Shown one piece after another: positions 4,886 to 62,693 of a stretch of 64,000 bases of DNA (position 1 is its first letter; every line of letters begins with the position of its first letter). The DNA comes from an uncultured Bdellovibrionales bacterium. Lineage in GTDB: Bacteria; Patescibacteriota; Minisyncoccia; Moranbacterales; UBA2206. The notes under the pieces are model-generated. The model saw nothing but the letters and a program-made list of their open reading frames with translations. It was not told the origin of the DNA and searched no databases. The stretch lies in the NCBI GenBank assembly GCA_964406815.1, contig CAYOTC010000003.1, forward strand, positions 7,259 to 71,258, written 5' to 3'. The position numbers were made by a program, and so were the translations under genes.

Positions 4886-5839
4886 ATGTTAATAATGAAA
4901 ATTATAATAGAAAAAAATCAATCCGGACAAAGGATAGATAAATTTCTCAAGGAGGAATCATTTTTGGATATGGAAATTACGCGGGGAGAAATTATTCGTC
5001 AGATAAAAAATGGAAAAGTTCTGGCAAACAATAAAATAATCAAGCCGAGCTATATTCTTAAGGAAAGCGATAAGATAGAAATAGATTTTGATTATTCGGA
5101 TAAGAAAGAATTGGAATCTAATTCTGATCTTGATATTTCAATAATTTATGAAGATAAAGATATAGTTGTGCTTGATAAGCCTGCTGGTATCCAGGTTCAT
5201 CCAGATGCGAATGAAAAGAAAAACACACTGGTAAATTTCTTACTCTATAAATATCCGGAAATAAAAAATGTTCACGATGATTCGCATGGTTCTGATTTTC
5301 GTCCAGGAATAGTTCATCGGCTGGACAAAGATACGAGTGGTGTAATCATTGTGGCAAAAAATAAAAAAACATATCTTGAGCTTAAGCGAAAATTCAGAGA
5401 AAGGGAAATTGAAAAAAAATATTGGGTAATTGTTTATGGTGAGATGGAGAATGATGAGGGAGCCATAGAAAAGCCGATTGCTCGCGCTTCGAACTATAAA
5501 AAACAAGTGATTGCCGGAGAAAAAACAAAAACTAAAATCAGAGAAGCCAAGACATATTATAAAGTAATTAAAAAATTCAATAATTATTCTTTGATTGAAG
5601 CGGCTCCAAAGACCGGACGGATGCACCAGATTCGAATTCATCTATCTTCAGTTGGTCATCCGGTCGTGGGAGACAAGCTTTATTCTTTCAGAAATACAAA
5701 GGATAAATTAGGGGCAAAAAGGCAGCTTCTTCACGCGAAAAAAATAAAATTTGAACTTTTTGGGGAGGAAAAAACGTTTGAAAGTGAAATCCCTGATGAT
5801 TTTGGAGATTTTCTTTCCAAACTTGACGAACAAAAATAA
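4886..5839 (+). CDS. RluA-family 23S rRNA pseudouridine synthase (RluD-like, S4 domain plus catalytic domain)
   Basis: Catalytic motif HRLDKDTSGVIIVAKN and downstream RMHQIRIHLSSVGHPVVGD. Confidence 0.85.
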   Translation: MLIMKIIIEKNQSGQRIDKFLKEESFLDMEITRGEIIRQIKNGKVLANNKIIKPSYILKESDKIEIDFDYSDKKELESNSDLDISIIYEDKDIVVLDKPAGIQVHPDANEKKNTLVNFLLYKYPEIKNVHDDSHGSDFRPGIVHRLDKDTSGVIIVAKNKKTYLELKRKFREREIEKKYWVIVYGEMENDEGAIEKPIARASNYKKQVIAGEKTKTKIREAKTYYKVIKKFNNYSLIEAAPKTGRMHQIRIHLSSVGHPVVGDKLYSFRNTKDKLGAKRQLLHAKKIKFELFGEEKTFESEIPDDFGDFLSKLDEQK

Positions 5840-12856: not shown

Positions 12857-13450
12857 TTATTTCAAGTCATGAATTCTTATCAATTTAAAATCATCATCAG
12901 TGTTCCAAACAGCAAAAGTAGGAGGATATATTTCTCCAGCTGTCGTTCCAGGATTGAGCAAGGTGTATTCTCTTTGGTTTGCATCAGCTTTAGCTTTTTC
13001 AATCCAAGGTTTATGAGTGTGTCCATAAAAGACGAAATCATATTTTCCAGTGAGGGCCAAGCCTCTGGCTTTTTCAGGAAAATGGACGAAAGCGACGTTC
13101 TTTTTTTCAATAATGACTTCGCCAAAATCTTTGAATAAGTATATTTGTTTATATTTAGTTGTCATGCCGAACTTGTTTCGGAGTCTATTGTCTTGAGATT
13201 CTGAATCAAGTTCAGAATGACATTCTTTTTGTTTCTCTTCTGCTAATTCTCGCAAATCATCATATTCCGCATTTCCGAATGTAATGAGAATATTGCCGGA
13301 GAAATTGTCATTCAAAAAATCCAAGGTTTCTTTAGACGCAATATCTCCGCAGCAGATTATCGTGCCTATCTTTTCTTTCGCGCAATAATCCAGAACCTTT
13401 TTCAGATTCACTTCATTATTATGAATGTCGGAAATGATAGCGGTTAACAT
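12857..13450 (-). CDS. metallophosphoesterase (YfcE/MJ0936 family) carrying an in-frame palindromic-repeat insertion
   Basis: SDIHNN, CCGDI, GNAE and YGHTHKPW motifs; stop lies 1 nt from the UDG start, so operon-like. Confidence 0.75.
   Translation of the reverse strand: MLTAIISDIHNNEVNLKKVLDYCAKEKIGTIICCGDIASKETLDFLNDNFSGNILITFGNAEYDDLRELAEEKQKECHSELDSESQDNRLRNKFGMTTKYKQIYLFKDFGEVIIEKKNVAFVHFPEKARGLALTGKYDFVFYGHTHKPWIEKAKADANQREYTLLNPGTTAGEIYPPTFAVWNTDDDFKLIRIHDLK
13160..13222. repeat. composite short palindromic repeat: two inverted copies of the GATTCYGRA-N5-TYCRGAATGACA family
   Basis: TGTCATGCCGAACTTGTTTCGGAGTC...GATTCTGAATCAAGTTCAGAATGACA; the first copy has compensating T/C-to-G/C changes that keep the stem; sits in-frame inside the 12857..13450 CDS. 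Confidence 0.6.
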
Positions 13451-16911: not shown

Positions 16912-17100
16912 TTTAGTATTGAGTATAAAGTATCTCGTATTCAGTATAAGATAAAAAATATCAAATACCAAATTATTTTTTTCTAATTAAAAAGTGCCGC
17001 GGAGCGACACTTTATTTATTGTTGATATTTTTTCATACTGAATTTACCGTGCCTCGCCGGCAGGCGGGTTTCAGCATCTAGGATTATTTTGTTTTAGTTA

Positions 17101-17126
17101 GATTCTGAAACAAGTTCAGAATGACA
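17101..17126. repeat. short palindromic repeat GATTCTGAAACAAGTTCAGAATGACA
   Basis: Same family as the copies at 13160..13222 and 29666..29913; intergenic between nfo and nrnA. Confidence 0.55.
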
Positions 17127-17134
17127 TTATAAAA

Positions 17135-29362: not shown

Positions 29363-29665
29363 TTCTCAGTGGAAATGCTATTGATATTATTTTGTCAAAG
29401 AGCCCGACTTCGGCTCATTATATATGTTTGCCTAGTTACCTCCTTTGGTAACACTCTATACTAGCACAAAAAACGAAAAAAGTCAATCGATATTATGGCT
29501 TAAATAAGGAATAAATATTTCTGTATATAAAGGAAGGAGAATTAAGGTGGAAAAAAATATGAGAAAAAACATATTTTTTGGCTTAAATTAAGCTAAAATA
29601 GGCAAAAATCAGACAAAAATGTCTGATTTTTGCCTAAAAATGCTTTATTTAAGGTATTTTTTATA

Positions 29666-29691
29666 GATTCCGGACTAAATCCGGAATGACA
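29666..29691. repeat. short palindromic repeat GATTCCGGACTAAATCCGGAATGACA
   Basis: Family GATTCYGRA-N5-TYCRGAATGACA. Confidence 0.55.
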
Positions 29692-29768
29692 ACTTTTAGT
29701 GTATTTTAATAGGTGGTATTTATAAAAATGGCTTATTTATACTATTTATTATTATTTAACTAGCATTT

Positions 29769-29794
29769 TGTCATTCTGAACTAGTTTCAGAATC
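29769..29794. repeat. short palindromic repeat in inverse orientation (TGTCATTCTGAACTAGTTTCAGAATC)
   Basis: Same family. Confidence 0.55.
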
Positions 29795-29887
29795 TTTTAA
29801 TTTATAAAAAATTTCTTTTTTTATCTTATAAATTAATAAAACTAACCTATTTCAGCTTTTTTTAAATAATTAAAAAATAAATTTTTA

Positions 29888-29913
29888 GATTCCGGATCAA
29901 GTCCGGAATGACA
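29888..29913. repeat. short palindromic repeat GATTCCGGATCAAGTCCGGAATGACA
   Basis: Same family. Confidence 0.55.
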
Positions 29914-30027: not shown

Positions 30028-30429
30028 TTGCTGAATGGTTATATGGCTGAAAAGAGTGAAAAGAAATATCTTACACTAAATCAGATAGGAGCTTATAGAA
30101 AATCATTTAATTTATCTAATTACGGATGGGATATAATTTTCAAGTGGGATAATTTTTCTAAAAATACTATTGGAAGCCAATTTGTGAGATCATTAGATTC
30201 GATTTCTGCTAATATCGCCGAAGGATTTGGAAGGTACGGAAAGAAAGATAAGATAGTTTTTTATAGAATCGCCAGGGCATCGGTTTATGAATCATTGGAT
30301 TGGTTAGAAAAATCAAGAAGAAAACTTATCAAAGAGAAGGACTATGAATATATTTTTTCAATACTGCAAAATTTTCCGAAAGAAATAAATGCACTTATAA
30401 AATACACAAATAACAATTTATCAATATAA
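30028..30429 (+). CDS. four-helix-bundle protein (family commonly found inside 23S rRNA intervening sequences)
   Basis: SISANIAEGFGRY...FYRIARASVYESLDWL signature. Confidence 0.75.
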   Translation: MLNGYMAEKSEKKYLTLNQIGAYRKSFNLSNYGWDIIFKWDNFSKNTIGSQFVRSLDSISANIAEGFGRYGKKDKIVFYRIARASVYESLDWLEKSRRKLIKEKDYEYIFSILQNFPKEINALIKYTNNNLSI

Positions 30430-50602: not shown

Positions 50603-50710
50603 TTTTTGGAGAAATTGGCTTCTTATGATAAATTTGGAATATAAAAAAAGTTACTGTTGAACATAAAGAAAGTTCTAACTTCCTCCACAGTTCGGCTCAA
50701 AAAGAAAAAA

Positions 50711-50740
50711 TCCAGGATTTATTCCTGGATTTTTTCTTTT
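50711..50740. terminator. bidirectional rho-independent terminator
   Basis: TCCAGGATTTATTCCTGGA flanked by an A-run and a T-run. Confidence 0.6.
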
Positions 50741-51924: not shown

Positions 51925-51965
51925 AAGAGATTTTTGGCTATAAATAGCCAAAAATCTCTTTTTTA
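51925..51965. terminator. perfect 17-bp-stem hairpin plus T-run
   Basis: AAGAGATTTTTGGCTAT-aaa-ATAGCCAAAAATCTCTT followed by TTTTT. Confidence 0.6.
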
Positions 51966-62000: not shown

Positions 62001-62635
62001 AAGTTGATGGAAAAGTTGTTGGCATAGAAAGTACCGACAAGACCATAATCATCAAAGTTGAAGCCAATGATAAGATTAAGACACTGAAAGAATATCAAGT
62101 GATGCAAGGTGCAACTCTCAAAGTTAATATTGGTGACTTGATCGGAAAAGGAACACAACTCAGTGAAGGTCATATTGATCTTAAAAAACTTTATTCAACG
62201 ATGGGATGGGAAGAAGTTTATCGCTATATTATCAGAGAAATTCAGGAAGTTTATGCGGCACAGGGCGAGGGAATTAATGACAAGCATATTGAAATCATAG
62301 TGCGTCAGATGTTTAGCCGAATTTCGATTTTGGAAGCAGGTGATTCCAATTTTCTTGCCGGAGATGTTGTGGAGGCGGATGAGTTTAATGAAGCTAATGA
62401 AACAATAAAATCTCAAGGCGGAAAAGAAGCGGTTGGAGAGCGTCTTCTTATGGGAATCACGAAAGTGGCTCTTTCGACCGAAAGTTTCCTTTCAGCAGCG
62501 TCTTTCCAGGAAACTGCCAAAGTGCTTATTAGTGCGGCAGTCCAGGGTAAGGAAGATAAATTGAGAGGTCTTAAGGAAAACGTTATTATTGGAAAACTTA
62601 TCCCAGCCGGAACCGGATTCAAGGGAGAGAAATAA
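59042..62635 (+). CDS. rpoC: DNA-directed RNA polymerase subunit beta'
   Basis: Zn-binding CxxC...CxxC N-terminus, NADFDGD active site, trigger loop and bridge helix blocks. Confidence 0.95.
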
Positions 62636-62652
62636 TTTTTCCTGTATATCTG

Positions 62653-62693
62653 AAGACCGCGCCCCGCATTTGCGGGGCGCGGTCTTCTTTTTT
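62653..62693 (+). terminator. strong rho-independent terminator after rpoC
   Basis: Perfect 15-bp GC-rich stem AAGACCGCGCCCCGC/GCGGGGCGCGGTCTT followed by T7. Confidence 0.85.

Follow-up and report, generated by a model that had tools for sequence, protein, structure and literature searches.

A TGTC-tagged hairpin doublet inserted in frame in a phosphoesterase gene of a Moranbacteria-like bacterium, and its probable kinship with Ssn-type repeats

The phosphoesterase gene and the repeat units of the window

The window, by which we mean the whole 64-kb stretch of DNA that was analyzed, has a G+C content of 37% and comes from a CPR (Moranbacteria-like) bacterium. One of its genes encodes a metallophosphoesterase and harbors two short hairpins in inverted orientation, arranged as follows:

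12857..13450, minus strand: MJ0936/YfcE-type metallophosphoesterase gene, 197 aa, Pfam Metallophos_2 at 1.7e-20; hosts the doublet
13157..13231, minus strand: segment missing from the closest empty ortholog, 75 nt or 25 codons, composed on the coding strand of CAAAAAGAA, the 63-nt doublet, and ACT
13197..13222, minus strand: unit A of the doublet, TGTC, ATTCTGAA, CTTGA, TTCAGAAT, C; perfect 8-bp stem and 5-nt loop; encodes CHSELDSES
13186..13196, no strand: doublet spacer, 11 nt between units A and B
13160..13185, plus strand: unit B of the doublet, TGTC, ATGCCGAA, CTTGT, TTCGGAGT, C; two stem mismatches; the gene strand encodes LRNKFGMT

It had been predicted earlier that the composite repeat lies within the coding sequence of a YfcE-type phosphoesterase without breaking the frame, and this proved correct: the open reading frame 12857..13450 reads ...KQKECHSELDSESQDNRLRNKFGMTTKYK... 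across the doublet. Homologs of the protein, annotated as YfcE family phosphodiesterase, are from Candidatus Moranbacteria and from other Parcubacteria or Patescibacteria, and its nearest solved structure is MJ0936. When the protein was aligned with 30 orthologs (alignment A1), all the invariant columns, including D8, H10, D36, N60, H123, H144, and H146 and the metal-binding motifs, were found to be retained. Most of the orthologs are 167–175 aa long, compared with 197 aa in the window, and lack the extra segment. The closest ortholog without the insert, P0003, is 90% identical to the window protein at the amino acid level in this alignment, and its gene is exactly 75 nt shorter. The presence of an extra segment was thus borne out, but its predicted size of approximately 22 aa needs to be amended to 25 aa (75 nt) relative to the closest empty ortholog, of which the doublet itself makes up 21 aa (63 nt).

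A second alignment (A2), consisting of the window gene, an empty locus (L001, run SRR8925779), and a filled one (L002), displayed neither a target-site duplication nor direct repeats flanking the 75-nt segment, one site being compared. An assembly artefact was rejected, since three assemblies that are independent of one another, those of the window, of Logan L127 (run SRR8925738), and of ENA L002, contain the filled allele. Judged from these alignments, the doublet is a genuine in-frame insertion. In the AlphaFold model of the phosphoesterase (mean pLDDT 86), the confidence dips only over the inserted residues, with positions 84–94 below 50, and the modelled insert sits between the helix 64–80 and the strand 97–100. 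The structural check suggested with the original prediction thus placed the insert where a model that is confident elsewhere has low confidence. As the invariant residues are kept and the model confidence falls only at the insert, the gene looks functional, with its catalytic motifs intact, and the insert looks like a tolerated flexible segment.

We searched the window with the pattern of the original prediction, allowing up to three mismatches and using shuffled sequence as the control. The search yielded seven matches, against 0.03 expected from the shuffles, and these represent six copies, of which the palindromic one at 13197–13222 is matched a second time in reverse. Both the six hairpin copies of about 26 nt and the enrichment of the motif within the window were thereby confirmed. 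The units outside the phosphoesterase gene, including a probable seventh one, are:

17031..17078, plus strand: probable seventh unit with the degenerate tag TTTC; TTTCATACTGAA, 27-nt loop, TTCAGCATC
17101..17126, minus strand: perfect unit, stem ATTCTGAA, loop CTTGT; in the spacer between a DHH gene and an AP-endonuclease gene
29666..29691, minus strand: perfect unit, stem ATTCCGGA, loop TTTAG; intergenic
29769..29794, plus strand: perfect unit, stem ATTCTGAA, loop CTAGT
29888..29913, minus strand: perfect unit, stem ATTCCGGA, loop CTTGA; stem and loop are those of the right doublet unit of the ortholog L126

Read with the tag first, the 26-nt unit consists of TGTC, AT plus 6 nt, a loop of 5 nt, 6 nt plus AT, and C, i.e. 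an unpaired 5' TGTC tag, an 8-bp stem that opens with AT, a 5-nt loop, and a C immediately 3' of the palindrome. In this reading the copies at 13160–13185 and 29769–29794 are on the plus strand, and those at 13197–13222, 17101–17126, 29666–29691, and 29888–29913 are on the minus strand. Five of these six copies have a perfect 8-bp stem (ATTCTGAA in three and ATTCCGGA in two), with CTTGA, CTTGT, CTAGT, or TTTAG as the loop. All six clear copies start with TGTC, and each keeps both GTC and the trailing C. The 3' tail is CTA in four copies and otherwise CTC or CTT; the C after the palindrome is invariant.

Unit A folds as DNA at -5.6 kcal/mol. In unit B, two positions at the stem base are unpaired (ATGCCGAA versus TTCGGAGT), and the counterpart of this unit in L002, a relative, forms a ATGCCGAA/TTCGGCAT hairpin without mismatches; unit B is therefore a decayed copy and not a compensated variant. 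Together, the two units constitute an inverted doublet (13160–13222) with the tags outward and an 11-nt spacer. As single-stranded DNA, it folds into one long imperfect hairpin (-12.6 kcal/mol, z -4.4, for the 69-nt region around the doublet). The segment 17031–17078 is probably, to judge from its sequence, a seventh copy with an enlarged loop. This 27-nt loop encloses a nested GC hairpin, GCCTCGCCGGCAGGCGGG (17051–17068), and the same 18-mer is also found inside the loop of a unit in L123. With the unit at 17101–17126, it forms a second tags-outward doublet, the fold of 17028–17129 reaching -16.6 kcal/mol (z -4.5). The units at 29769–29794 and 29888–29913 make up another tags-outward pair, with an AT-rich spacer of 93 nt. 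The tags thus face outward in all three composites of the window, and the units and doublets fold as single-stranded DNA far better than their shuffles do. At gathering thresholds, Rfam found only tRNAs in the window, and no described RNA family therefore covers the units. A chance origin was rejected on the basis of the seven matches against 0.03 expected, the wide occurrence of the units, and the complementarity of their stems.

Occurrence in other genomes and proximity to Ssn-like GIY-YIG genes

A scan with TGTCATTCYGRAYTNRNTYCRGAATC of one genome per species (596 Gb) showed the exact 26-mer pattern in at least 120 stretches from many phyla, whereas approximately 0.3 matches would be expected by chance, a figure that is our own estimate and assumes uniform base composition. 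The hosts among the matches listed include Treponema, Gastranaerophilales, Vampirovibrio, Flavobacteriaceae, Ignavibacteria, Dehalococcoidia, Elusimicrobia, Rickettsiales, and several CPR groups. Two stem pairs are left free by the pattern, and both were Watson-Crick pairs in 130 of the 131 matches listed outside the window, against an expectation of 25%. The complementarity of the stem is thus strongly non-random, which supports a constraint on the stem. The original prediction had argued from compensated stem variants; the stem constraint stands, but the copy at 13160 that had been counted among those variants is a decayed one.

The matches listed also define the shape of the unit in other genomes. 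Perfect 8-bp hairpins were preceded by TGTC in 204 cases and by CGTC in 18, the loci having been selected with the TGTC pattern. Among these 222 hairpins, 203 had stems starting with AT and 199 had 5-nt loops. The 3' tails of the matches listed were CCA (57), CTC (52), and CTA (50). Unit pairs no more than 150 nt apart had their tags outward in 57 cases, inward in 12, and in the same orientation in 14 (matches listed), and the dominant arrangement of gene-less units was a tags-outward pair with a spacer of about 10–30 nt. The unit can be read without a stop codon in three of its six frames, and 12 of 136 copies among the matches listed lie within long open frames, where they are read in the stop-free frames as CHSELDSES, RFRNKFGMT, or ILNQVQND.

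To compare the neighbors of the hairpins, we clustered 1,459 ORFs all against all; they came from 120 of the loci with hairpins among the matches listed. The results showed that: (i) a small GIY-YIG protein (PF01541) of about 95–105 aa was the only recurrent non-housekeeping neighbor among the matches listed, and (ii) there was no recurrent transposase-like family beside the hairpins in the clustered ORFs of these 120 loci. In a Patescibacteria MAG (L074, 5319–5710), TGTCATTCTGAACTTGATTCAGAATC is followed by 14 nt, a 105-aa GIY-YIG ORF at 5359–5673, 11 nt, and an inverted unit; both units that frame this 392-bp cassette are identical to unit A of the window and have their tags outward. A similar proximity of a GIY-YIG gene and a unit was observed in L079, L008, L046, and L059.

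A reciprocal sample consisted of 80 metagenomic loci picked solely because they encode a relative of the GIY-YIG protein. A tagged hairpin was found within 150 nt of the gene in 38 of the 80 loci, and on both sides in 26, where 0.05 would be expected per 180 nt. These hairpins had their tags outward in a ratio of 30:7 upstream and 30:11 downstream of the gene, and their stems ranged from the Neisseria-like ATTCCCGC to ATTCCGGA, ATCCTGAA, and ATGCTGAA. The exact variant of the window is thus linked to Ssn-like genes in other genomes, where the label Ssn-like refers to the Pfam GIY-YIG domain, the size, the single-domain structure, and the repeat context of the proteins, and not to a direct comparison with SsnA of N. 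meningitidis. In a PDB sequence search, the nuclease of L074 gave a weak match (E 0.0088) to the uncharacterised UPF0213 protein 1zg2. A profile search of the six-frame translations of the 64-kb window and of L001, L002, and L123–L127 found no GIY-YIG/Ssn gene.

Relation to published repeat families

The superfamily of CGTC-tagged REPs was defined by Di Nocera et al. 2013 (PMC3733652). Its members have the tag CGTC, or often TGTC or CCTC, stems of 8–9 bp that almost always start with AT, loops of 4–5 nt, and a short unpaired 3' tail with the consensus CCA (PMC3733652). They occur mostly as head-to-head (inverted) dimers, often heterodimers, with some intragenic copies; they have no dedicated transposase, and no tyrosine transposase flanked by the repeats was found (PMC3733652). 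The term "head-to-head" of that paper is equated here with tags outward, a reading of our own. The same paper equates RPE-4/-6 of Rickettsia and dRS3 of Neisseria with the superfamily and lists CGTC REPs from five phyla, mostly from Alphaproteobacteria (PMC3733652). The window units resemble CGTC-2 to -4 in their tag, in a stem of 8 bp that opens with AT, in a loop of 5 nt, and in having a short tail, as well as in the predominance of head-to-head heterodimers, the intragenic copies, and the lack of an adjacent dedicated transposase. They differ in having CTA, CTC, or CTT as the tail instead of the consensus CCA, which is common in the other genomes sampled, and the 26-mer of the window was seen in many more lineages than those five phyla, including CPR.

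A nuclease partner has been described for related repeats. SsnA, a 94-aa single-domain GIY-YIG protein, binds the NTS CGTCATTCCCGCGMAVGCGGGAATCYRG, an oriented form of dRS3 (Chenal et al. 2025, PMC11893778). It acts on single-stranded DNA only, and only on the tagged strand, which is nicked a few nt upstream of the tag; cutting depends critically on the three nucleotides GTC that precede the palindrome, and binding on the C after it (PMC11893778). The characterised members of the Ssn family, cd10448-like single-domain proteins of about 95 aa, are those of Neisseria (NTS/dRS3) and Wolbachia, and hairpins of the Ssn-related motif (SRM) type are found near ssn genes in many bacteria, with at least one nearby in 71% and one on both sides in 42% (PMC11893778). 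The demonstrated role of the Neisseria Ssn is to restrict incoming single-stranded DNA during transformation, whereas the movement of its motifs by Ssn was raised by the authors as a hypothesis only; intragenic NTS are rare (2% in N. meningitidis) (PMC11893778).

Like SRM, the window units are oriented hairpins: they carry an HGTC tag, their arms are ATTC...GAAT, and the palindrome is directly followed by a C. Their tags-outward pairs match the SRM-ssn-SRM layout, and in other genomes Ssn-like genes are flanked by units identical to those found here. The AT-rich core of the stem (TCTGAA, CCGGA) and the 5-nt loop CTTGA/T set them apart, as do the CPR host, the window without an ssn gene, and the intragenic position of the copy studied. 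The published SRM search string, HGTCWYN(0-2)YYVSBRHN(0-5)WNVSBRGN(0-2)RNCYNB, which was built from 29 genomes, matched none of the six window units, while the Neisseria NTS used as the control was matched. The string misses the window units because it demands G/C at stem positions that are A/T here, and surveys built on it therefore undercount the family, the AT-rich subtype being invisible to them.

Rickettsia palindromic elements (RPE) are in-frame inserts in protein-coding genes (reviewed in PMC10969869). The present insert resembles them in being an in-frame palindromic repeat in a housekeeping-type enzyme that adds a peptide and is tolerated at a surface position. The first-described RPEs are, however, about 150 bp long and specific to Rickettsia, while the insert here, from an unrelated phylum, is a doublet of 63 nt made up of 26-nt units. 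The REP/REPIN-RAYT systems of Gammaproteobacteria and the Ssn-type repeats both consist of short tagged hairpins with inverted doublets as the likely unit, and in both a single-copy nuclease gene that recognizes single-stranded DNA is framed by its own repeats; the tag is GTAG and the enzyme an HUH Y1 transposase in the former, as opposed to TGTC and a GIY-YIG nuclease in the Ssn type. The mobility of REPINs has been observed, whereas that of SRM has not.

The repeats of the window are probably TGTC-tagged stem-loops of the CGTC-REP/SRM superfamily, and the doublet a gene-less, non-autonomous shell of an SRM-ssn-SRM cassette. The 63-nt doublet is read as such a shell because a tags-outward pair also frames the ssn genes. 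In the mechanism that we propose, Ssn would nick transiently single-stranded DNA at the units, on the tagged strand and a few nt upstream of the tag, as the characterised members do, and host repair or recombination after the nick could lead to the spread, loss, or replacement of doublets. The biochemistry of Ssn is taken from the literature on those members and would hold for the window units by analogy. By the same analogy, the source genome would be expected to encode an ssn gene, and Ssn or another agent may move the units. The persistence of the doublet in the phosphoesterase would be explained by its position in a flexible stretch that links a surface helix to the following strand, combined with the three stop-free frames of the unit. 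The two nicks predicted for a tags-outward doublet would be on opposite strands. Since this is unlike the excision of IS200/IS605 elements, there is no worked-out chemistry for transposition, and the boundaries of the insert fit the predicted cut sites poorly, as the empty and filled alleles differ by 75 nt and not by 63 or 69 nt.

The element belongs to an already described family (CGTC/TGTC REP, SRM) and is not a new kind. Both the family and its partner nuclease are on record, as are in-frame palindromic inserts in Rickettsia, and the basic finding therefore leaves the general picture unchanged. We found no earlier report of a CPR (Moranbacteria-like) host for Ssn-type repeats or of an AT-rich stem variant that escapes the published SRM string. 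The results extend the reach of Ssn-type repeats into CPR/Patescibacteria, with one 26-nt subtype near-identical across very distant phyla. The Ssn of the Patescibacteria MAG L074 is 60–65% identical to Flavobacteriaceae proteins, and this likeness, taken together with the near-identical subtype in distant phyla, suggests horizontal spread.

The same site in phosphoesterase orthologs

The interest of the locus lies mainly in the series of orthologs at a single site. We surveyed the linker between GNxxxD(D) and xYKN in 119 orthologs. The linker is 8 residues long in most of them. Hairpin-encoded peptides (CH[PS]E...G[MT]T) were present in about 17 of the 119, mostly in a more distant clade, and other linkers contained apparently decayed versions (e.g. 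RHPMSSD... and GHSVPNR...) or other extra segments. In the clade of the window itself, only P0001 and P0002 are filled, and they share the insert; P0003 is much closer to P0001, yet it is empty. When four distant orthologs were read as DNA, doublets were found near the position equivalent to that in the window. Their left unit is TGTCATCCTGAACTTG(A/T)TTCAGGATC, with an enlarged loop in L125, whereas their right units differ, their spacers measure 2, 11, 11, and 13 nt, and the lengths of their left linkers vary. The spacers at the phosphoesterase site in orthologs are 11, 11, 13, 11, and 2 nt.

As far as the sequences go, this series fits repeated insertion or replacement at a tolerant, and perhaps preferred, site, and it also fits an old insert whose left hairpin was conserved or homogenised as DNA and which was cleanly lost several times. 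In the former case, the phosphoesterase loop would be a recurrent landing or turnover site for Ssn-type doublets across a CPR lineage, with a near-invariant left unit, right units and spacers that are swapped, and gain and loss that preserve the frame and leave no duplication. We propose this tentatively and consider it rather doubtful. If true, it would provide the first comparative record of how Ssn-type repeats move or convert and would point either to a preference for this target or to selection, at the DNA level, on an Ssn site within a gene. We found no earlier report of a phosphoesterase loop that holds different doublets, decayed remnants, or nothing, or of a left unit that stays near-identical despite third-position divergence.

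The possibility of an old, vertically inherited insertion that is now immobile, with at least the left hairpin under nucleic-acid-level selection for a host function, such as a programmed site of single-stranded DNA nicking or recombination or a transcript structure, appears unlikely, although several observations speak for it. The left unit is identical between orthologs at 23–26 of its 26 nt despite a third-codon-position identity of just 39–59%, and exactly one compensated pair (T-A to C-G) sets the unit of the window clade apart from that of the distant clade. In all six filled genes that were read as DNA, the insert ends on its right side two codons (one in L124) 5' of the conserved Y-K, and in L123–L125 the doublet is the sole unit within 13–20 kb. 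However, the insert is patchy on the ortholog tree, P0001 and P0002 being filled and P0003, with 90% amino acid identity to P0001, empty; the right units and the spacers (2–13 nt) differ beyond what palindrome-preserving point mutation would produce, the left linkers also being variable; and the decayed remnants in several orthologs argue that the hairpin is not generally required.

The doublet could also be imagined as a classical REP/REPIN mobilised by a RAYT (an IS200/IS605-type Y1 HUH transposase), as it consists of short tagged hairpins, folds into a longer hairpin, and shows no target-site duplication. The tag is TGTC and not GTAG, no tyrosine transposase was found flanked by CGTC-type repeats (PMC3733652), and the 120 loci from the matches listed contained no recurrent transposase-like family by all-against-all ORF clustering, which makes this explanation very improbable. 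Descent as a MITE from an insertion sequence with a DDE transposase, the two units being its terminal inverted repeats, is extremely improbable: although the inverted ends TGTCAT...ATGACA, the shortness of the element, and the existence of empty and filled alleles would suit it, there is no target-site duplication at the sole site that allows a comparison of both alleles, units often occur singly and form a palindrome on their own, spacer lengths run from 2 to over 90 nt, and no insertion sequence with such ends was seen in any locus among the matches listed. Of the MITE/REP-like mobile hairpin originally proposed, the REP-like character was thus upheld, whereas a strict MITE was not supported, as no target-site duplication was seen at the one site compared and no associated transposase in the 120 loci. 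We infer the mobility of the element from presence/absence patterns only. Ssn-type repeats of the CGTC-REP/SRM superfamily are the reading that we prefer.

The gain and loss of CGTC-type REPs could be traced with the phosphoesterase orthologs, which offer, as a natural series, one and the same site in the empty, filled, replaced, and decayed state. The syntenic regions of relatives contained no units other than the intragenic doublet, and the syntenic spacer between the DHH and AP-endonuclease genes in L124 is 75 nt long and carries no unit.

Probable transfer of an Ssn-like cassette and units in viral contigs

When the GIY-YIG protein encoded at 5359-5673 of L074, a Patescibacteria MAG locus in which the small single-domain nuclease gene is framed by inverted units, was compared with Flavobacteriaceae proteins (Tamlana, Muricauda, Oceanihabitans; P0126, P0128, P0135), the identity was 60-65%. 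Since this likeness is far above the relatedness of the phyla, the sequence comparison suggests that the cassette was recently transferred horizontally. Predicted viral contigs from IMG/VR likewise contain the 26-mer pattern of the TGTC-tagged hairpin, with 27 matching stretches (L208-L234). One of these stretches (L234) carries an Ssn-like gene at 541-840, followed by four tagged hairpins clustered at 886-1035.

Intragenic units and a hairpin nested in unit loops

In a Treponema MAG (L043), two separate units lie in frame within one minus-strand open frame of 815 codons and would encode the peptides CHSEFSSES and CHSELDSES; the frame is a further case of multiple intragenic unit copies, here in a spirochaete. 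The empty phosphoesterase allele, without the unit doublet (L001), and the filled allele (L127) came from runs with neighbouring accession numbers, SRR8925779 and SRR8925738, respectively, and the two runs are possibly from one study site.

The 18-mer GCCTCGCCGGCAGGCGGG, a small GC hairpin in its own right, occurs in exact copies at 17051-17068 of the window and at 10262-10279 of L123, the locus of a distant filled ortholog, in both cases within the loop of a TGTC-tagged unit. The two places are unrelated and belong to two Moranbacteria-like genomes, and the orientation of the 18-mer relative to the tag of the enclosing unit is opposite in the window and L123. Judged from these copies, GCCTCGCCGGCAGGCGGG looks like a second tiny element landing in the loops of TGTC-tagged units.

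Genes beside the units and the phosphoesterase

The following genes were found beside units or near the phosphoesterase:

Window 30028-30429 (+), '23S rRNA-intervening sequence protein' gene (PF05635, 1.7e-18)
L123 11593-12336, LAGLIDADG-type ORF (weak match)
L124 11501-11974, HNH-type ORF (weak match)

The PF05635 gene, one of a small, multi-copy type, is separated by approximately 115 nt from the cluster of three units at 29666-29913, on the right side of the cluster, and lies directly upstream of nusA. The two weakly matching ORFs of the distant filled loci L123 and L124 each lie in the region directly downstream of the UDG gene, which itself follows the phosphoesterase, and the phosphoesterase-UDG neighbourhood in relatives seems to collect selfish nuclease genes.

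Other inverted repeats in the window

Long perfect inverted repeats with stems of 16-18 bp are located in the window as follows:

29599-29636
50700-50740
51925-51960
62652-62687

These repeats have no relation to the TGTC family and are probably terminators. The repeat at 62652 is GC-rich and comes after a 1197-aa ORF that ends at 62635.
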